Shown here piece by piece: positions 2,585 to 64,000 of a stretch of 64,000 nucleotides of DNA. The translations under genes were made by a program, and so were the position numbers. Position 1 is the first letter of the stretch, and every line of letters begins with the position of its first letter. Source of the stretch: Clostridia bacterium. Lineage in GTDB: Bacteria > Bacillota > Clostridia > Christensenellales > Aristaeellaceae. The DNA lies in assembly GCA_017428385.1 (NCBI GenBank), contig JAFRQX010000036.1, positions 7,325 through 71,324 of the forward strand, read 5' to 3'. Under the pieces are notes generated by a model, which searched no databases, had not been told where the DNA came from, and saw nothing but the letters and a program-made list of their open reading frames with translations.

Positions 2585-3670
2585 ATGGAACAGAAATGGC
2601 CGTTGGACGTAACGGTTTCATTCGATCCGTATTTCGGTGAACCCAGCCGGGACGGCATCCAGGGCGCGGAGGTCCTGCCGGACGGAAAGGTGCACTTCAG
2701 GGTTATCGCCAAGGACGCAAAAGAGGTTGTGATCGACCGGTTCGGAACCATTTTCCCGCTTTCCAAAGTGGAAGACGGGGCGTGGGAAGGAACCTTTGAT
2801 ATGGGAACCGGCTTCCTGTATTTCTTCCTGAAGGTGGACGGCGCGGACGTGTTGTGCCCCTACATGCCCATCGGATACGGCTGCTGCCGCCCGATGAACT
2901 TTGTGGACGTGCCCGTGGCCGATATGGAAGGCTGGGACGACCTGGAAGGTGTGGAACACGGCGCGGTGACCCGTCGCTACTTCTACTCTACGGTGACCGG
3001 CAAGACGGAAATCTGCCTGGTGTGGACGCCGCCGGCCTATGATCCCGCAAAGGCCTATCCGGTGCTGTACCTGCAGCACGGCTACGGCGAGAACGAGACC
3101 GGCTGGATCTACCAGGGACATGCCGGCCGGATCGCCGACAGGCTGCTGGCGGAAGGCAAGATGGAAGAGATGATCATCGTCATGGGCAACGGCATGGCAA
3201 AGCCCAAAGACGAAAGCCAGCCCCGGGATTTTGCCCTGTTCCCGAACATCGTGGTAAAGGACCTGATCCCCTACATTGAGAAGAACTACAAGGTGCTGAC
3301 GGACAAATGGCACCGGGCTATGGCCGGCCTGAGCATGGGCAGCTTCCACACCAGCGTGACCACGCTGACGAATCCGGACCTGTTCGGCTACGCGGGCCTG
3401 TTCAGCGGCTTCCTCCGGGCTCCGTGGAATCCGGATGAGGAAATGCCCCACATGAAACTGCTGCATGAAGCGGATAAGTTCAACGAGAGCTTCAAGGTGT
3501 TCTACCGCGCCATGGGCACGGAAGATACCTACTGGGAAGCCTTTGACAAGGACGACGCCTACCTGGCGGACAAGCCCCTGAACATTACCCGGGAAACCTT
3601 CCCCGGCGGACATGACTGGACGGTGTGGCGCCGCTGCATCCGCTCCTTCCTGCCCAGACTGTTCAAATAA
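2585..3670 (+). CDS. CE1-like esterase (alpha/beta hydrolase, N-terminal CBM48-like Ig domain; feruloyl/acetyl esterase family)
   Basis: YPVLYLQHG, RAMAGLSMG nucleophile elbow, GGHDW catalytic His. RBS AGGAGG before ATG 2585. Confidence 0.85.
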   Translation: MEQKWPLDVTVSFDPYFGEPSRDGIQGAEVLPDGKVHFRVIAKDAKEVVIDRFGTIFPLSKVEDGAWEGTFDMGTGFLYFFLKVDGADVLCPYMPIGYGCCRPMNFVDVPVADMEGWDDLEGVEHGAVTRRYFYSTVTGKTEICLVWTPPAYDPAKAYPVLYLQHGYGENETGWIYQGHAGRIADRLLAEGKMEEMIIVMGNGMAKPKDESQPRDFALFPNIVVKDLIPYIEKNYKVLTDKWHRAMAGLSMGSFHTSVTTLTNPDLFGYAGLFSGFLRAPWNPDEEMPHMKLLHEADKFNESFKVFYRAMGTEDTYWEAFDKDDAYLADKPLNITRETFPGGHDWTVWRRCIRSFLPRLFK

Positions 3671-56086: not shown

Positions 56087-57616
56087 TTATTTATGCCATA
56101 CTTCGTTCATGAATTTGATCCGTCTTTCAAGCCACGTTGCAAGCTGTTCGGCAGACTCCTCTTCGTTTTTGCAGGCATAGGCCTGCCGGTTCAGTTCATA
56201 ATCGATGGGAGACTTGTCTCTCATATTGCTCCAGCGTTTATAGTTTTTCGTAAATGCAGATTTGTACTTCTGGCTGTCAGAACGGACTGACTCAATGGTT
56301 TCGGTGAACACGCCCCGGTCATAAAGATCTGTCCACTTCCGGGCGATGATATCTGTGAACCATTCCTGCCTCATCAGTACGTTGAGCCACGGGTTGATTG
56401 CCTTGTACACATGATCCACATCATCCACCACATTGGCCGCGTGGTACCCGCGACCATACTCGACGACATAACGGTTTCCCATGGCTGAATCAAAGTCCCA
56501 GGGGGCTTCAAACCGCAGCTTTTTGTCACCGTCGGGACTGAGATCAGCGCTCATGAAAAAGCTGGAATAGTAAATATCCGGGTCACAGGTGATTTCACTG
56601 AGAATATACATATCCGCCAGGGACTGAACGTCGACGACAGTTTCGACAGCCTCCCGGGGCGTCTTGGAAGACGGTGCGGTATTCCTGAAATCGGCGGTCA
56701 TCTCCAGTGCTTTATCATCATAGGAGGCTGAATACATGATGTCGTAGGTGTTGGAAATAAAGTTCCGGATCGTGATGCGCTGGGTTTCGGAGCGGATATT
56801 GCTCTTGATTGTGAAACCCACAAGATCCTGCTTGCGCTGGGGATCCGTGCAAAGTGGTGTGAAAGGGTTTGCATTGGGATAACCGTTAAACGGAATCAGC
56901 GGCGCAAAATTGTTGTAATTGATGGTGAAGGAGTGCAGGCGGTCTTCCAGCGTGTAATATGCGTCATATTCCACAAAATATCCCACGTTCGGGCCGTTTT
57001 CTCCTTCTTTGGGTTCAGGTACGTTTACGCGGCCCTTGGCTACTTCCTGCTGTTCCGCGAGGAGGTATACGCCCCAGTACTTACCGTTGATCTCCACCTC
57101 AACCAGTTCGCAGTCGGAACAGTAAAGGTCTTCTCTCAGGATTTTGTGTGCCAGTTCAAAGGCTGTTTTGTTCCGCAGCATGGAAAGGTCCTTGTATTCC
57201 GCCAACAGAAGCCAGTTTTTGAACGGCTGTCCTTCGTTAAGATCGCCAAAGGACTGCTTTTCCGTGAATTTGATCCGCAGCGGCTTTTTCTCATAGCTGG
57301 TGGTCCAGTTGCCCCTGACTTTGACCTGCGCCGGTTGCTTGCTGACGGTGGTTTTACCGTCGGTTCCGGTGTAGGAGACGGTGCATTCGACATAATAAGG
57401 TTCAGGGGGGATTTTATAATCGGGCGTCCAAGAGGCGATAGCCGCGGAGACGTTGCCCTTCACGGGTTCGGTCACGAAGCGGGTGCCTTCTCCCTTGGTA
57501 ACGGTTTTGATGGAAATCAGGGGCATCAACCGTTTGCCGGCTGCCTGTGCACCGGCACAGCAAAGAAGAGCCATTGCGATAAGCAGTGCGGCAAGGAATG
57601 CTTTTGTATGTTTCAT
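56087..57616 (-). CDS. Secreted CotH-family atypical kinase
   Basis: KVRGNWT, LRIKF, WLLLAEYKD..LRN, YWGVYLLAEQ, PWDFDSAMG; signal peptide. Confidence 0.88.
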   Translation of the reverse strand: MKHTKAFLAALLIAMALLCCAGAQAAGKRLMPLISIKTVTKGEGTRFVTEPVKGNVSAAIASWTPDYKIPPEPYYVECTVSYTGTDGKTTVSKQPAQVKVRGNWTTSYEKKPLRIKFTEKQSFGDLNEGQPFKNWLLLAEYKDLSMLRNKTAFELAHKILREDLYCSDCELVEVEINGKYWGVYLLAEQQEVAKGRVNVPEPKEGENGPNVGYFVEYDAYYTLEDRLHSFTINYNNFAPLIPFNGYPNANPFTPLCTDPQRKQDLVGFTIKSNIRSETQRITIRNFISNTYDIMYSASYDDKALEMTADFRNTAPSSKTPREAVETVVDVQSLADMYILSEITCDPDIYYSSFFMSADLSPDGDKKLRFEAPWDFDSAMGNRYVVEYGRGYHAANVVDDVDHVYKAINPWLNVLMRQEWFTDIIARKWTDLYDRGVFTETIESVRSDSQKYKSAFTKNYKRWSNMRDKSPIDYELNRQAYACKNEEESAEQLATWLERRIKFMNEVWHK

Positions 57617-57761
57617 ACTGCAGGTCCCTCCCTGTAGATAGGTATGGAAAAAGGAACTGAAAAGGTGTGGGGCTTTGGAAGCTATGGGTTCATTCTACAG
57701 AAGGGGGAGGGGAAAGTCAAATAAAGGGAATGAATACTGAAAACTGATGGGGACGGGGGAG

Positions 57762-58086
57762 GGAGCATAGGGGAGTCGATTCCGTTCGCTCAATGGTCGT
57801 TCAAGTCCCTTGGAGCGGGAGATGTGTGCCCGGGGAGTCGAACCCCGTCTCGCTGCGCTGCGCTTGCTCGGTCAGGTTCGCAATAGTCGTCCGCCTTCTC
57901 TGCCGTTCGGCAGACTCCTTTGCTCACCAGGCTTCCACATCGCTTTCGCCTGCGGCGAGCAGCCCACTGGGCTGCCGCTCTGTTCCGCCCCTCTCCAATG
58001 CTTCGCGTTGTCGAGACAGGGGTCGACTTCCCCTTGCACACATAAACGAAAATCACCACCCATGAAGGGTGGTGATTTTGTTTTGT
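57762..58086. mobile_element. tRNA-derived non-autonomous mini-element bounded by an 18-bp duplication of the tRNA-Ala 3' end
   Basis: ggagcataggggagtcga at 57762-57779 and 58087-58104; internal T-arm copies at 57832-57846 and inverted at about 58000-58042. Confidence 0.6.
58049..58079. terminator. Strong bidirectional terminator downstream of tRNA
   Basis: aaaatcaccaccc-atgaa-gggtggtgatttt. Confidence 0.9.
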
Positions 58087-58141
58087 GGAGCATAGGGGAG
58101 TCGAACCCCTGACCTCGACAATGCGAATGTCGCGCGCTACC
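58086..58141 (-). pseudogene. tRNA-Ala(CGC) 3' portion with non-canonical 5' end (att-like junction)
   Basis: Intact anticodon arm CGACA-TTCGCAT-TGTCG, T-arm AGGGG-TTCGACT-CCCCT and 3' acceptor strand ATGCTCC-A. Expected GGGGCAT/D-stem 5' part absent. Confidence 0.8.
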
Positions 58142-58187
58142 GGGTATGCTTAAACTCACCACAAGCTCCTCAAGCTCTGTGAGCCTT

Positions 58188-58216
58188 ATAATACAACGTT
58201 TTCCGGTTTTTGTCAA
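58188..58216 (-). promoter_or_regulatory. Consensus sigma-A promoter pointing into the tRNA fragment
   Basis: TTGACA-17-TATTAT. Confidence 0.8.
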
Positions 58217-58342
58217 TTTGCTCAAAAACCCTGATTTTCCTATCAGATATGCACTTACTCACTGTAAAAATGGGCGTTTTTTTCGTTTTTAGGCGGTAAC
58301 ACGAATATGAAACTTCTCACCATTTAACAAAATAGACACAAT

Positions 58343-59983
58343 TTACAATGCCATCGTGAAAAAGGTTCTCTGAGCTTCAGAAATCTGGGTTTTCCCATCC
58401 GCAGTTTCTCTTCGAAAATCCTCCAGCGCAACATAAAATGTTACGGAGAGGTAGTAGTCGCGCCTGACCTCTATCCTTTCAATTAGGTGAGCAAGAACCA
58501 TTTTCTTTTCATCCCGTTGCATTAAATCATAAGTATCTGCCCACTCCATGATGCTCTGATACTGACTCGAGAGGAACTTAACATGGTTTTCTTCGTTGTC
58601 CTTTTGCTTTTGAAGATCGGCAATTACTTTCTCCATTGTTGTAATTCGATCGCGAATATCATTCAGCATCGGATTCAACACATCAGCAGTTAGTTTGCTT
58701 TCGCCCATAAGACAGTTGATTATCTCTTTTTCGATAGCCTCACGTTTTGCTTGGAGCTGTTTTAGTTCTCCCTCGCACCTCTTTATCATGCTTAAGGTTG
58801 AGCTTTCTTTTTGCCTCCTGGCTTGTTCTTTCCAGATAGAATCAACTGTAGACTTAACGCTTTCAAAGTACTGATGAACAACACGATCAATCTCATCTTC
58901 AATGATTCTTGCTGAATAGACGGTTTGTCCATCACATTCTCTGGCATCTATTGCTCCATTATAGCAACGATAGATCGGACGGAAGTAAGTGTGGTTTTTT
59001 CGATTTCTTACACAATAGCTTCCAACAAGTTTTTTGTGGCAATGACCGCAATAAAGAATACCCGAAAGCAATGTGGCGCCATAGACTGATGTCTTTGTTC
59101 TTCCCTCTTCAATGATACCATTCTCCAATTCCCTACGGCTGTCATACCGGTGAAGAATACGATCCTTGAGAGCATGCTGGACGAATTCAAACTCAGCATC
59201 TGATATCAAGCGAAGGTCCTCAATAGGTTCTGATACCACATCGTTCATATGCATCCTGCCAGTATACACAATATTCTTTAGTATTGTCATAACTGTCGGC
59301 CGTGTCCAGACTTTCTTGTCGTCTGGGTATTTTTTGTTAAGATGATTACAAATCTGCCATGCACCACAATCGTGTTTTCCAGCCAGATTAAAGATTTCCT
59401 GAATGATCGGGCCTGTCTTTTCATCAATTTCCAAATCATATAGCGGACGATTTTTCTTTCCAATCCGGCCCTTATGCACCAGTTTGTATCCATAAGGGCA
59501 AGTGCCACCTCGCCAGATCCCATCTGCTGTCATTTGAGAATGAGCAGCCTTCACACGTATAGAAGTTTTTTCACTTTCACCACCGGCTTGCCAGTAACGG
59601 ATATAATTGATCAACTTATCTGCCCTGTTCTCAATTCGCTGCTGACCCTCCCTCGTGCTCCAGACTTCAATCCCATGTTCGACAAACCATTGAACCAAAA
59701 AAGGCGTTTCATCTTCTCGTCGTCCAAGTCGGTCAAACATAAAGACCAGGAGAATATCGAACTCCCTGCGCTCAGCTTTTGATCTTATCTCTTGGATAGC
59801 ATCTCGTTTGCTCGCGGAAATCTTATACCCTGAAACGCCTTTTTCCATCAGTTCACCAGTAAACTTCCATTCCGGTTGTCTGCTAATAAAATCCAGACAT
59901 TCACGGCGTTGCATAGGAATGTCATCTTGTGGGTCAACCTGCCCTTTGGTGGATACTCTGTATAAACACATTACTCTTTTCAT
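58343..59983 (-). CDS. Large serine recombinase (resolvase + recombinase + Zn-ribbon/coiled coil)
   Basis: CLYRVST catalytic Ser, FMFDRLGR, GGTCPYGY, LSGILYCGHC...YRC; RBS before ATG 59983. Confidence 0.95.
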   Translation of the reverse strand: MKRVMCLYRVSTKGQVDPQDDIPMQRRECLDFISRQPEWKFTGELMEKGVSGYKISASKRDAIQEIRSKAERREFDILLVFMFDRLGRREDETPFLVQWFVEHGIEVWSTREGQQRIENRADKLINYIRYWQAGGESEKTSIRVKAAHSQMTADGIWRGGTCPYGYKLVHKGRIGKKNRPLYDLEIDEKTGPIIQEIFNLAGKHDCGAWQICNHLNKKYPDDKKVWTRPTVMTILKNIVYTGRMHMNDVVSEPIEDLRLISDAEFEFVQHALKDRILHRYDSRRELENGIIEEGRTKTSVYGATLLSGILYCGHCHKKLVGSYCVRNRKNHTYFRPIYRCYNGAIDARECDGQTVYSARIIEDEIDRVVHQYFESVKSTVDSIWKEQARRQKESSTLSMIKRCEGELKQLQAKREAIEKEIINCLMGESKLTADVLNPMLNDIRDRITTMEKVIADLQKQKDNEENHVKFLSSQYQSIMEWADTYDLMQRDEKKMVLAHLIERIEVRRDYYLSVTFYVALEDFRRETADGKTQISEAQRTFFTMAL

Positions 59984-60552
59984 ACTGCAACCCTCTTTCC
60001 TTTGAGGGCTATAGCATGGAAGCGCGCAGCATTCAGTTTTCAAGGTGCGTTTTATGTACAGTCACAGATTAGTTTTAGGAATTAAAAGTGTCAAGGATAT
60101 CATTTCGCTCACTCGTCTGAGTTCGAACTCGTGTCCTACCTCTTAGGAGATCGAAAAAGTGTTCGCCTTTGCTGTTCCCTGAAGTGCCTTTAAGCCTTGC
60201 CATTGCTGGGTTTCTAACGTTTTTCACAGTTCGCATTTTCCTTCAAAATACCCCCGTTTTCCCCCAGTGCTGTTAGCTGGGTGTTAGCACAGCTAACAAA
60301 GGCGGCGTGTTCGACTTTCACATCTACCGCCAAATCGTTAGCTGGACGTGATGAAATCATCATCATTTATCCCCGTAATGCGTCAAATGACTGCCCAGTC
60401 ATGAATGAATATTCATTGCATATTTTCCAAGACGCTTCCAGTATTCCAGATCTGTGTTTTGTCCCTCCATAAAGCGGATCGCGGCATAAGGGCCGGGAAA
60501 TGCACGAACTCCCACGGGGTATGTGCCTCGTGGGAGTTTTTTTTCGTCTTTT

Positions 60553-61728
60553 TTACTCGATTTCGAGAGTGATTGCTTCCTCCATGTGCGGCTGCTGGTT
60601 CTGGTAAACGGGCACTAAGGAGATGCCAGTCAAATCATTCATGGCATCAAATAATACTTCATATACAAGCTGGTTTTCTCCGCTTATTCCGACACCTTGC
60701 ACTCCGTTCTCTGAAATTATTTCACCATTGACATATAGGTACCAATCCTCGATCATGTCAATATGATCCGGATTCTCCCATGTCTTCCAGACTTGAATCC
60801 ACGCATCCGGGCAGGTGATCATGATTTTTCCACGCAAATCGATATGTCCTGCCGTCAGTTCAGCCATAGCCGTATAATTCGAGCCACTTATGCTGCCTTT
60901 CAGCCGTGTCAGATCGGTGTTCTGATTCAAAGTGAATTCAAAGAAGGTGTTTTCGCCTCTCTCCGTCGACTGCCGATACGTGGTTCCGTCTTGATACATG
61001 ATGCTGTGAATACGATAAAGTTTTGCCTGGAAAGTCAAGGTTTCCTCAAGACGATCATCAGGAATTTCACACTCTTTCCATCCGATGACGCTACCATCTT
61101 CCTGGACGATATTGTCCCCGCCAATAATATCAAGATAGGTTCCGTCCGCTAAACTCAGACCATCATGCAATCCTTTTTCTGTGCTTTCAATCCATCGCTG
61201 GCTTTGACCATCAAGCTGCAGGATTGCCTGCTGACGTTCAGGCTCGTCGCTGATCATAGTTTGGGAGACAATCATGTTTTCTTCAACCCAATCCCAATTG
61301 ATTTCACCATCCGGGCTGCCTTCATGGAGAACGGTTGAAGTCCAGTCGCCGCTCATCCGATATGAAATAAACACTCGGTTTCCTTCATAATATGCCTGCT
61401 CGATACGGATGGTGATACCATCATCTGTTGTCCATTCACGTTCAATAGGATCGGCGACTTTATCTACTTCTGAAAGTCTGCTGTCCCCACGCGGATTCTG
61501 CGCCAGTTCGCCGAAGAGCCCAAGCCCGGCTGCAAGTGCGGCGGTCATGGAAATAATAACAAGAGCAATAACAAGAATGGCAGATGTAGAAAGCTTTTTG
61601 ACCACAGGTTCTTCTCCTTTCGCTTTTCGTGCAATCTGGTAATGCAGCGAAGGCGCTTCGTCAATCCCGCGAGTACAATCGTCAATCGCAGCGCGGATGC
61701 TGTTCATGATTTCCTGATCAGTTTTCAT
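60553..61728 (-). CDS. Anti-sigma-like membrane protein (DUF4179-like)
   Basis: Overlaps sigma stop; TM ending TAALAAG; GITIRIEQAYYEG beta segment resembles 40344-41471. Confidence 0.7.
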   Translation of the reverse strand: MKTDQEIMNSIRAAIDDCTRGIDEAPSLHYQIARKAKGEEPVVKKLSTSAILVIALVIISMTAALAAGLGLFGELAQNPRGDSRLSEVDKVADPIEREWTTDDGITIRIEQAYYEGNRVFISYRMSGDWTSTVLHEGSPDGEINWDWVEENMIVSQTMISDEPERQQAILQLDGQSQRWIESTEKGLHDGLSLADGTYLDIIGGDNIVQEDGSVIGWKECEIPDDRLEETLTFQAKLYRIHSIMYQDGTTYRQSTERGENTFFEFTLNQNTDLTRLKGSISGSNYTAMAELTAGHIDLRGKIMITCPDAWIQVWKTWENPDHIDMIEDWYLYVNGEIISENGVQGVGISGENQLVYEVLFDAMNDLTGISLVPVYQNQQPHMEEAITLEIE

Positions 61729-62242
61729 CGTCTTCGCCTCCTTCCAGTTCGGTTCTCAGTTTCTGCTTTGCCTTATGGATTCTGCTGGAAACAGCTGCTT
61801 CCGTCAGGTTCAGCATTTTTGCGATTTCTTTGATGGGATAGCCCTCATAGAAATACAGCAGAACGACTTCCATGTATTTGGGCTTCAACTTCATGATCGC
61901 CATGGTCAGAGCAATATGATCATCGCTTGGTGGCGCAGATGACAGGAAGGGCAGCTGGTCGACGGAAACACGAAAATCAATGTATCGATACCATGCACTT
62001 CGTCTGTAATCCCGACAGCAATTGATTGCGATCCGGATCAGCCAGGTCTTTTCACTGCTTTCCCCACGAAAAGAATCCATGCTCCTGAAAGCCTTCAGAA
62101 AGGTTTCCTGTACCACATCCTCCGCAGCAGTACGATCTCTCAGGTATATGCAGCAGATTCGGAGCAGATCCTTTTCATATTGCTGCACCATTTGATCAAG
62201 TCGGTCTGCCGGGGTTTGATTCGGCGCCTGAATCATTCCCAC
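61718..62242 (-). CDS. ECF RNA polymerase sigma factor
   Basis: AEDVVQETF, KTWLIRIAIN, YPIKEIAKML; CGTCTAA at 62265-62271. Confidence 0.93.
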   Translation of the reverse strand: MGMIQAPNQTPADRLDQMVQQYEKDLLRICCIYLRDRTAAEDVVQETFLKAFRSMDSFRGESSEKTWLIRIAINCCRDYRRSAWYRYIDFRVSVDQLPFLSSAPPSDDHIALTMAIMKLKPKYMEVVLLYFYEGYPIKEIAKMLNLTEAAVSSRIHKAKQKLRTELEGGEDDEN

Positions 62243-62515
62243 CGTTGATCACCTCCTCAATCATTTAGACGATGGGCAAGCCCAAAACTTAAATTTTTCA
62301 GAAAATGTTTTTCGAGGTGGCTTTTTCGATGCCACCCCATTGTTATACACGATTTCCGGCCCTTAAGCCACACCGATTTCTGTTTTTATAGAAAGAGTGC
62401 CTGTCCGGCAAAACGTTCACATCGAGCAGTACATGCAGATCACAACATAAGAGCAGTTAAAGAGACTCCCGCAGGATGCTGGGCCTTGCATTTTCTATTA
62501 TTACTCATCGTTATT

Positions 62516-62848
62516 CTATATGCCCTTGTCTTTCATTCTTTTCAGAGCCTCTTCCGCACCTTTGACTGCGGTCATCTCAACAAGCACATCCTTAAGTTCT
62601 GTCTCCAGTTCACGCATTCTTTTTTCTTTTCTCCAGGAAAGTCTAGGCAAATTGATTCCCCATTCTATCTGAGTTTCTGTCGCTCCTGCGTCTTTGAGTA
62701 TTTCTTTCATTTCCTTCAATAGTTTTTCTCCTCTTTTATCCAGCTCACTCCAGTTTGATATCAATTTATTTTTTAATTCTTCCTTGTCAATGCGTCTTGA
62801 AGCAATCATTTCCATTACATGTTCTACGAATTGATCTATTTCATTCAT
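62516..62848 (-). CDS. Hypothetical charged helical protein
   Basis: 110-aa AT-rich ORF with Glu/Lys-rich composition; start overlaps an upstream stop (ATGA). Confidence 0.6.
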   Translation of the reverse strand: MNEIDQFVEHVMEMIASRRIDKEELKNKLISNWSELDKRGEKLLKEMKEILKDAGATETQIEWGINLPRLSWRKEKRMRELETELKDVLVEMTAVKGAEEALKRMKDKGI

Positions 62849-63159
62849 TTTGCCTTACCCGCTTTTCTCCGTAGGTCATTCTCGATACTTTTCCACATTG
62901 AATCTGATGTAACAAGATAAGATTCTTATATTGACGCTTCGGTGTACTTTCTTTCCTTCTTAACGTTGAAGTCCTTGCAAAATTGTCTGCGATCGGATAC
63001 ACCCCCCAAAAAAACAAATATCACAGACTTGCCTGTGATACCTGATAGCAGGTTCATCAGTGCATGCCTATGATATTTATATTTTATCACACAGTATTCT
63101 GTTGTCAATTTTATGGGCCAATCAGCATACACCGCCAGAGTCATCATGAGAGTATGCAC
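62845..63159 (-). pseudogene. Possible degraded gene with internal stop
   Basis: Frame of ORF 62926-63159 continues past TAA as ESYLVTSDSMWKSIENDLRRKAGKAK-TGA, coupled to the next ATG. Confidence 0.35.
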
Positions 63160-63263
63160 GGTAGAATAACTCGACTGTTTATCCTACCATGCATGAGCTA
63201 TTGTTGAAAAACTAAACCGGGGATGCGCTCCCCGGCCCTCATGTCGCGATCTGCTTATAGCTC

Positions 63264-64000
63264 TCAGTTTATCAGTTCCAGATTCCCTTGTTCGTCGATG
63301 CTGTAATCAAATACATCCAGAACAGCGCCTGTCGGCACAAATTCATTCCGTACTTCATCGAATACCAACGGCGAAAGCTGGCGGAAAATGTGCACACCGT
63401 CTCTGCCATAGCAGGCCGAGCCGTATGCCTGGATGCCTGAATCCTGGTAAACTTCGTATCCGTAGGTTGTATAACTCGCCTCGATTTTTCGCGTTTGCAA
63501 ATGATACACATCAATGTACCGGACATAGCATCCCGTCCCATGTCCGATCACACTGAACTCCAGATAAACGCTTGTTCCATGATCGGTGCCGCACACACGG
63601 AAGTCCTCGCACGCAAAGGGGATGTAGTCCCACAGATACCAATCGGGCCACTGCTCCACAAAGATCAGGGTTCCTTCTTCACCCCAGCCCCATCCGGAAA
63701 AACTGATGACCTGCACCAACGGCACATTCTCGGTTGAAATATCTGAATTCCCATGATGCTGAAGGTCTGCCTGGCTGATAAGCTCCCGAAGCACAGGCGC
63801 TCCGCAGGGCTCCATTTCGATTCCCCAGGATTGAAGCAGCTCGCGTGTTGCTTCGTCCTGACCCCGGTCATAGGCGTCCCGCAGACGCTGACAGGCCTCC
63901 TCCGGATCCATGGCAAGTGGCTGAAACCCCCGCTCCTCTGCTCCGTTATAGCGTGGGATTTCTTCACGCCAAACATAGCCGCTGTGTTCTCGCACGTTTT
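63264..64000 (-). CDS. Hypothetical protein, 5' end beyond window
   Basis: 243+ aa open frame running to window edge. Confidence 0.7.
   Translation of the reverse strand, partial: NVREHSGYVWREEIPRYNGAEERGFQPLAMDPEEACQRLRDAYDRGQDEATRELLQSWGIEMEPCGAPVLRELISQADLQHHGNSDISTENVPLVQVISFSGWGWGEEGTLIFVEQWPDWYLWDYIPFACEDFRVCGTDHGTSVYLEFSVIGHGTGCYVRYIDVYHLQTRKIEASYTTYGYEVYQDSGIQAYGSACYGRDGVHIFRQLSPLVFDEVRNEFVPTGAVLDVFDYSIDEQGNLELIN

Follow-up and report, generated by a model that had tools for sequence, protein, structure and literature searches.

tRNA genes are the classic landing sites of tyrosine integrases, and serine integrases are generally thought to use protein-coding genes. Tyrosine integrases reportedly target tRNA genes with crossovers in the anticodon loop, the T-loop or the 3´ end, and the D-arm is said not to be among the sublocations distinguished by Williams in 2002. 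To our knowledge, the characterised large serine recombinases (LSRs) integrate into protein-coding genes or between genes. A hallmark of LSR attP sites is dyad symmetry around a dinucleotide that is not itself palindromic. Full-text literature searches found no account of an LSR whose attB lies in a tRNA D-arm. Among 937 tycheposons of Prochlorococcus, 27 carry an LSR in place of the tyrosine recombinase, according to the consulted passages of the preprint (bioRxiv 10.1101/2020.12.28.424599), and the TIGER/Islander overview does not split tRNA use by integrase type. Here we describe a 64,000-nt stretch of a Clostridia bacterium genome (the window; GCA_017428385.1, contig JAFRQX010000036.1, positions 7,325–71,324), in which positions 58086–58165 are very probably the attR of an LSR-terminated mobile element integrated into the host tRNA-Ala(CGC) gene, with the crossover at, or within 1–2 bases of, A21-G22 of the tRNA.

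The − strand reads ...GGTGAGTTTAAGCATACCC|GGTAGCGCGCGACATTCGCATTGTCGAGGTCAGGGGTTCGACTCCCCTATGCTCCA at the junction, and GGTAGCGCGCGACATTCGCATTGTCGAGGTCAGGGGTTCGACTCCCCTATGCTCCA (58141–58086) is the 3´ 56 nt of the host tRNA-Ala(CGC), the B´ side of attR. It is identical to the corresponding part of 40 intact genes and contains the D-loop end (GGTA), the 3´ D-stem strand, the anticodon arm (CGC), the variable loop, the T arm, the 3´ acceptor strand and the discriminator, all intact by direct reading from the anticodon arm onwards. GGTGAGTTTAAGCATACCC cannot form the acceptor or D stems. The Rfam tRNA model aligns to 58086–58158 (−) with 38.6 bits (gathering threshold 29) and with non-pairs in the acceptor and D stems, and ARAGORN calls no tRNA over the entire window. 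The fragment is followed by the intrinsic terminator of the host tRNA gene (58049–58079, −; a 13-bp stem and a T run). Just to its right, the GC content drops from about 0.55 to 0.42–0.47.

To place the fragment among its relatives, the exact 55-nt 3´ part was scanned against one genome per species, which yielded 46 loci, nearly all from metagenome-assembled genomes (MAGs) of rumen or gut Clostridia/Christensenellales. At 40 of these loci, GGGGCATTAGCACAGTT|GGTAG... precedes the 3´ part and ARAGORN finds a normal tRNA-Ala(cgc); the intact gene of the related rumen and gut Clostridia reads GGGGCATTAGCACAGTTGGT-AG-CGCGCG.... A hairpin of the window's terminator type also stands 3´ of intact genes in L041, L026, L018 and L015. 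Since the gene is intact in the 40 related loci, the 5´ 17 nt in the window are foreign, and altogether the 5´ 17–20 nt of the gene have been swapped for foreign DNA. Three loci (L013, L024 and L043) share both this foreign 5´ sequence and the LSR. The first-pass annotation had described a tRNA that is intact from GGTAG to the discriminator and whose 5´ acceptor/D-stem is replaced; direct reading, Rfam and the intact relatives all bear this out, and its alternative, a native gene scarred by recombination, is literally true too. The odd 5´ end is not a trait of element-free relatives, whose normal 5´ end is evident from the intact gene preceded by GGGGCATTAGCACAGTT in the 40 loci, including L041.

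The LSR gene lies to the right of the fragment (58343–59983, −), is intact and encodes 546 amino acids. Pfam assigns a Resolvase domain (PF00239, residues 6–155, E = 3.9e-17), a Recombinase domain (PF07508, residues 189–275, 7.4e-09) and a Zn_ribbon_recom domain (PF13408, residues 305–365, 1.3e-07), which is the serine-integrase arrangement of an N-terminal catalytic domain followed by the C-terminal Recombinase domain and zinc ribbon. The LYRVSTKGQ motif is visible in an alignment, and the protein distantly matches SPbeta YokA/SprA (the best solved relative, E = 3e-7) and the TP901-1 integrase. Judged by these features, it is a genuine LSR, although a divergent one. Its variants at about 99–100% identity number more than 60, nearly all of 546 amino acids. 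The 5´ untranslated region and putative promoter (59984–60106, −; TTGACA at 60095–60090) accompany the LSR in every homologue of at least 70% identity, and the similarity of the window to the 84% homologue L060 stops at 60071. Between the LSR stop and the GTGAGTT motif in the adjoining element arm are 184 nt, and no tyrosine integrase was found in 58142–64000, in agreement with the first-pass annotation, which had placed the LSR end about 200 bp away and seen no tyrosine integrase. No relaxase was found in the 5.9 kb of the element inside the window. Neither border had a match in viral collections, and the sequence gives no sign of a phage origin.

The element arm (P) of attR, GTGGTGAGTTTAAGCATACCCGGT, occupies 58139–58165 (−) with its outer motif GTGAGTT at 58159–58153, and attR is thus composed of this arm and the tRNA 3´ part. 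The P arm is invariant beside the LSR in all loci. With additional copies retrieved by protein look-ups and a metagenome scan, the arm ...GTGAGTTTAAGCATACCC|GGTAGCGCG was found in front of at least 12 different downstream flanks, several of which have counterparts beside the intact gene of other MAGs. The metagenome scan with the P arm gave three matches, all of which are tRNA-Ala junctions. Between contexts, the LSR module shows 98–100% DNA identity, while the flanks are unrelated or less than 80% alike. In a sheep gut run (X5), the LSR unitig has a depth of 160, compared with at most about 15 for the flank of the window's host. The unrelated flanks, the near-identical LSR module and these depths indicate repeated horizontal insertion into one site rather than shared ancestry.

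The breakpoint is retained by diverged recombinases. LSR homologues of 84% (L060), 74% (L084), 70% (L082) and 58% (L085) identity are all followed by the tRNA-Ala(CGC) 3´ part, 45–200 nt after the stop, and in L085 this part belongs to the tRNA-Ala(CGC) of a different host lineage. The arms of the homologues are unlike each other (GTGAGATTCTTCATATATGGG|AGCGCG; GTGAGTCTGTATATATTTCGG|AGCGCG; ...ACACATTCGTT|AGCGCG), with the GTGAG-N16-AG layout kept in the 84%, 74% and 70% homologues. In the 70% and 74% homologues the tRNA identity begins exactly at AGCGCG, which puts the crossover at A21-G22 or immediately to its right. The breakpoints of the homologues and the centre of the dyad described below point to AG at 58137–58138 (−), on the D-loop/D-stem boundary, as the probable crossover dinucleotide. 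On this comparison, the tRNA breakpoint is a property of the recombinase lineage, and the window LSR itself probably catalysed the insertion. L085 is a mobilizable element with Rep, MobC, a relaxase, AbiE and SIR2, in which the LSR is the last gene; an 84-aa open reading frame that overlaps the LSR start there is a candidate for a recombination directionality factor.

An outward-facing, sigma-70-like promoter is predicted at the element end (58188–58216, −), from where it reads across the att site. It consists of TTGACA (58216–58211), a 17-nt spacer and TATTAT (58193–58188), scores 11/12 and is the top site within 57600–60400. The end of the −10 element is 46 nt from the tRNA-identical part, close to the 45 nt or so given in the first-pass annotation. 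The −35/−10 block (TTGRC..CGTTRTAWWATAAGG) is kept in the 70–100% homologues, L060, L084 and L082 included, and is absent from the 58% homologue L085. Such a promoter would also suit a native, unusual or decaying tRNA-like gene, for example a truncated tRNA or a regulatory RNA, beside which the LSR stands by coincidence; the Rfam score above the gathering threshold and an element-encoded GGAGC that can pair with the 3´ GCUCC would fit as well. This explanation is extremely unlikely. A normal gene occupies the same locus in relatives, the 5´ sequence moves with the LSR into the 12 or more unrelated flanks, and the GGAGC pairing is missing in the 70–74% homologues. The predicted chimeric transcript folds no better than its shuffles (z = −0.28) and without a cloverleaf, and the G3:U70 alanine identity pair is lost.

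Because the fold is at random level and G3:U70 is missing, a functional tRNA derived from the orphaned fragment is unlikely, and the fragment lacks the paired acceptor and D stems and the ARAGORN call expected of one. A functional chimeric tRNA was considered and ruled out on the ARAGORN result, the stem mismatches in Rfam and the random-level fold. For a tmRNA or other known RNA left of the fragment, Rfam returned only noise below threshold.

The expected partner junctions occur in related MAGs. Many intact tRNA-Ala(CGC) genes are preceded by one or two extra copies of the first 20–22 nt of the tRNA, which enter non-tRNA DNA right after GGT-AG (19 junctions at 14 loci). One class, here called a-type, reads ...GGT-AG-AACGAATATGAACTAACTCAC (L009, L022, L030, L031 and L045). 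In such an attL, the tRNA 5´ 20 nt are joined to an element arm; attL and attR share only GGTAG or less, and are therefore hybrid sites between which the target is not repeated at any length. Reverse-complemented, the window P arm matches the a-type P´ arm at 15 of 24 ungapped positions, and the corresponding values are 16/24 for L082 (70%) and 14/24 for L084 (74%). In 5000 trials of random arm matching, the 99.9th percentile was 14 and the maximum 15. The rebuilt attP reads GTGAGTT-N14-AG-N14-AACTCAC, with the 7-mers exactly 14 nt on each side of AG; its two halves, attR from the window and attL from L009 and the like, come from different genomes, so the palindrome lends support without being direct evidence. 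In a second pair, the decayed LSR of L019 has an arm that matches the stub arm of L023 at 19/24. The dyad symmetry around AG allows the stubs to be read as attL sites and suggests a 2-bp crossover at AG. The first-pass annotation had proposed that an LSR crosses over near the D-loop, and the recurrent junction, the fixed breakpoint of diverged LSRs, the partner junctions and the dyad attP all support this. As to the other element end, which it suggested looking for, tRNA 5´ half junctions were found in related MAGs and not in the window.

All a-type left ends continue from the stub and arm through about 95 nt into a complete tRNA-Ala(CGC), a conserved terminator and variable cargo. The cargo of L009 is a restriction-modification set (two C5-methylases, an NgoFVII-type endonuclease and Vsr), and that of L030 comprises GmrSD/HNH, an EcoRI-type methylase and a relaxase. 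The a-type left end L009 and the LSR locus L013 belong to one MAG. In run X1, the best-matching sample of the window (97% of its sampled words), the depths are 26.4 for the a-type attL contig, 25.5 for the a-type flank contig, 27.1 for the host flank and 22.2 for the LSR unitig. In L043 and L059, a window-type LSR junction lies within a tRNA copy with the a-type terminator and flank behind it, which indicates insertion into the replacement tRNA of a resident element.

L005 contains a whole 4.3-kb element on one contig (87–4316) in the order 5´ stub(s), complete tRNA-Ala(CGC), S41 peptidase, LSR and ...CGGCTT|GGTAGCGCG 3´ stub. Its LSR is only 29% identical to that of the window, and no tyrosine integrase is present in the complete element. 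The LSR lineages of L005 and L019 use the same tRNA position as that of the window. The decayed element of L019 (2188–4140) has a 3´ stub in which the anticodon has changed from CGC to CGT, and its flanking repeat extends at least 85 nt past the tRNA.

The length of that repeat, together with the intact tRNA at the left ends in relatives, would fit a classical tRNA island, in which an off-window tyrosine integrase uses an attP carrying the tRNA 3´ 56 nt and the LSR is cargo or a second recombinase. Tyrosine recombinases of 302 amino acids do occur on other contigs, flanking the same 110-aa/sigma cassettes as are found in the window, but they go with anticodon-loop junctions in tRNA-Arg(CCT), not with tRNA-Ala. 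They are the only tyrosine integrases seen and do not belong to this junction; a far boundary with a tyrosine integrase, which the first-pass annotation had named as a counter-sign, was not encountered. A separate 5´ stub joined at AG precedes the intact left-end tRNA, which means that the gene was cut and replaced rather than restored by a repeat. The complete L005 element holds an LSR alone, the fragment-side arm co-varies with the LSR over 58–100% identity at a fixed breakpoint, and the rebuilt attP has the dyad symmetry of LSR sites. No tyrosine recombinase was found in 58142–64000 or in the L005 element, and the breakpoint at A21-G22 falls in the D-arm, reportedly outside the sublocations of tyrosine integrases. 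A classical island is accordingly very unlikely here.

Upstream of the LSR promoter lies a second border (60107–60149, −), tRNA-Arg(CCT)-like, in which CTCCTAAG (60149–60142) is followed by AGGTAGGACACGAGTTCGAACTCAGACGAG. These 43 nt upstream of the promoter read CTCCTAAG|AGGTAGGACACGAGTTCGAAC... and are also written CTCCTAAG|AGGTAGGAC. The sequence right of CTCCTAAG resembles the 3´ half of tRNA-Arg(CCT) (15/23). To the left are diverged versions of the right end of an island termed E1, with GCTAAC/TCTAAT arm repeats, an extracytoplasmic function (ECF) sigma/anti-sigma pair and the 110-aa gene. Elsewhere, the E1 island ends at CTCCTAAG and the tRNA-Arg(CCT) 3´ half (L051 2007–2060, L058, and contigs of X1 and X5). 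The 302-aa tyrosine recombinase is located at the opposite end of contigs with the same 110-aa/sigma cassettes, and on that side L078 (7465–7541) has an intact tRNA-Arg(CCT) beside a truncated 248-aa copy of the recombinase. E1 islands have an anticodon-loop crossover in tRNA-Arg(CCT) with the core CTCCTAAG and arm-type repeats at both ends; unlike the tRNA-Ala junction, these neighbouring islands show the crossover position typical of tyrosine islands. In all loci with 98–100% LSR identity, the E1 right end is fused to the degenerate tRNA-Arg-like half upstream of the LSR promoter.

This border raises the question of whether the mobile unit is only the 2.0-kb LSR module (58142–60141), whose ends, ...CATACCC-GGTAG and GGTAG-GACACGAG..., would join as attP. 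Such a module would be expected to leave CATACCCGGTAGGACACGAG where its 2.0-kb circle closes, or GGGGCATTAGCACAGTTGGTAGGACACGAGTTCGAAC at some locus. GGTAG is present at both borders, GGTAGGACACGAGT right of CTCCTAAG is identical at 14/14 positions to the start of the attL arm of another LSR lineage (L027), the locus identity falls sharply past about 60142–60160, and the module forms a single unitig of about 2.1 kb, present in large excess over every flank. Yet the left flank is never the tRNA-Ala 5´ half and always ...TCTCCTAAGA (six left-flank variants, 19 loci, four runs). The 60141-side arm is not the dyad partner of the window P arm, which it matches at only 9/24, the random level, compared with 15/24 for the a-type arm, and the 84–70% homologues lack this left border. 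An LSR-only unit has at best a small chance of being correct; as a 2.0-kb mini-element it was rejected on the arm asymmetry and the left flank.

Several observations weigh against an LSR-terminated element that reaches from this attR to an a-type attL. The window element's own far end falls outside the window. No tRNA 5´ half was found in the window by a search allowing 2–4 mismatches/edits, nor within 5.8–10 kb upstream in the window, L060, L083 and L085. No one contig shows both ends for the window LSR lineage: the long contigs all end within 3.5 kb upstream of the recombinase gene, and the a-type left-end contigs L009, L022 and L030 contain no second exact 55-mer. The link between the left and right ends consequently rests on the dyad symmetry, the one shared MAG and the equal depth, and the 15/24 arm match barely exceeds the random extreme. 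Three metagenome loci and the Logan contigs of four runs yielded no circular junction, and no recombination directionality factor, which LSRs need for excision but not for host-factor-independent attP × attB recombination, was identified. An E1-type island end, of a kind that otherwise sits in tRNA-Arg(CCT) with a tyrosine integrase, always adjoins the LSR upstream and does not fit the model. A walk upstream through the anti-sigma, 110-aa and 275-aa proteins met only changing cassette contexts and contig breaks, and the upstream flank of the empty-site relative L041 is absent from the sample contigs.

Comparison across the loci shows the target site and its reuse in many hosts, the co-inheritance of LSR and arm, a breakpoint shared by diverged LSRs, and the existence of attL junctions. 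According to the integration reading, the element would be the DNA right of the junction, from 58139 to beyond 64000, and the 56 nt left of the junction with the terminator would be the orphaned 3´ part of the host gene. The tRNA 5´ 20 nt would then be expected at the other end of the element, outside the window. The left end of the lineage is probably the a-type block, that is, tRNA 5´ half-AG-AACGAATATGAACTAACTCAC-about 95 nt-complete tRNA-Ala(CGC)-terminator. The far-end junction should thus read ...GGGGCATTAGCACAGTTGGT-AG-AACGAATATGAAC..., followed by about 95 nt and a complete tRNA-Ala(CGC), and the junction of the excised circle CATACCCGGT-AG-AACGAATATG.

Repair of the gene by way of a long repeat is not open to an LSR, which would explain a whole replacement tRNA carried by each element. 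The element would replace the gene that it breaks, and the new copy would be the next target, so that tandem arrays of 5´ and 3´ stubs would build up on both sides. In the excised circle, the outward promoter might read across attP (P´ arm and leader) into the element's own tRNA copy, a speculation from the geometry only. After integration, it would face the orphaned fragment and could transcribe only up to the host terminator. Taken together, these steps describe a serine-integrase mobilizable family of gut Clostridia that uses the tRNA-Ala(CGC) D-arm as attB, carries a spare tRNA inside its P´ end, leaves two-sided stub arrays and has a promoter that serves the tRNA of the circle until a host promoter takes over. 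We hold this full model tentatively, at slightly less than even odds.

Between the LSR stop and the att arm are two half-site-like direct repeats (GTGAG-N6-CATA...; 58239–58320, −, at 58320–58295 and 58262–58239), which are kept in the 70–84% homologues. A role as accessory binding sites is conceivable, although LSR attP sites do not usually have these. Upstream, the interior of the inserted DNA (60150–64000, −) begins with the E1-type right end and its GCTAAC arm repeats and runs off the window through a DUF4179 anti-sigma gene (60553–61728, −), an ECF sigma gene (61718–62242, −), both assigned by Pfam, the 110-aa gene (62516–62848, −) and a 243-aa open reading frame (63264–63995, −) whose homologue in L081 is called as 275 aa. 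Its GC content is 0.42–0.51, compared with 0.46–0.64 (mostly above 0.5) to the left. The interior is a mosaic of 1–3.5-kb cassettes, each 98–100% identical across many neighbourhoods (60142–64000; L050–L058, L072–L081 and L090–L097): the ECF sigma and DUF4179 anti-sigma genes (60477–62381), the 110-aa gene (62309–63190) and the 204/290(SH3)/275-aa genes. The cassette breakpoints fall at inverted copies of AAGGGCCGG(G/A)AA (60483–60499, 62353–62369 and 63224–63256), a pattern that suggests some cassette-shuffling mechanism.

The tRNA-Ala locus has been rearranged in other ways. An 18-nt perfect copy of the tRNA 3´ end, TCGACTCCCCTATGCTCC, lies at 57762–57779 (−; repeat family D19) and marks a second, older insertion (57780–58086) at the 3´ end of the same tRNA. 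The 325-nt block directly after the tRNA fragment is bracketed by this perfect 18-nt repeat (57762–57779 and 58087–58104), and run X1 holds a variant without the block. Its 225-nt core (57822–58046, −) has a folding energy of −121.5 kcal/mol (z = −5.8), is bounded by terminal inverted repeats of some 30 bp and closes with a copy of the tRNA-Ala T arm. Other MAGs carry homologous units behind tRNA-Ala(CGC), with two tandem copies in L018 and compensatory changes at 13 of 43 consensus pairs. The block matches no Rfam family and may be a miniature integrative element or a structured RNA. In the same neighbourhood as the structured block, pieces of tRNA-Ala, some of them 5´ halves and others 3´ parts severed in the variable loop, are fused directly to GGAAGCG...GCCCAGTGGGC units (L070 ~3180–3330, L014 205–330 and L030 2540–2660), which suggests further rearrangements at the locus.

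A whole LSR lineage (58–100% identity) and a second, 29%-identical lineage appear, on these alignments, to be dedicated to one position in the D-arm of a tRNA. If true, this would extend the rules of tRNA targeting, and the delivery of a spare copy would be another way to avoid the loss of the target gene. It would also provide a short natural attB, about 40 bp of a tRNA found across many Clostridia, with several orthogonal attP/LSR pairs for the engineering of gut anaerobes, and would explain tRNA 5´ fragments that are likely missed by island-finding software built on 3´ repeats.

The system resembles the LSRs of phages, integrative and conjugative elements and integrative and mobilizable elements (phiC31, Bxb1, A118, TP901-1, SPbeta SprA/YokA, and TnpX/TndX of Tn4451/Tn5397) in its Resolvase-Recombinase-Zn-ribbon architecture and in the terminal position of the recombinase gene, here 45–200 nt from the att site. 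The rebuilt attP, an imperfect palindrome of about 50 bp around a non-palindromic dinucleotide, the hybrid attL/attR without a long shared core and the split target gene are likewise as in known LSR integrases. However, the sequence similarity to solved LSRs is only distant, as the YokA match illustrates, and the target is a tRNA gene that is cut in the D-arm and for which the element apparently brings a whole replacement. As in tRNA/tmRNA islands with tyrosine integrases (P4-like), a tRNA serves as a reusable hot spot, tandem accretion leaves fragments and tRNA function is preserved. In contrast to those islands, an LSR and a D-arm crossover are involved, function is apparently kept through a second, whole gene and not through an attP with a copy of the 3´ part, and 5´ stubs pile up besides 3´ stubs.

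Tycheposons, as far as the consulted passages describe them, likewise bring cargo into tRNA-linked islands by integration, and partial tRNAs and tandem arrays occur there too (bioRxiv 10.1101/2020.12.28.424599). Their hosts are marine cyanobacteria, whereas the elements described here reside in rumen Clostridia, and those passages contain no account of how the att sites of the LSR-bearing minority are built, of a replacement tRNA or of a D-arm crossover. The accretion of SCCmec at rlmH by the Ccr LSRs offers a further parallel, an LSR-driven hot spot at which insertion regenerates the target and leads to tandem composite arrays. The staphylococcal cassette chromosome enters a protein-coding gene at its 3´ end and leaves it intact, whereas here the gene is cut and a new copy appears to be delivered.

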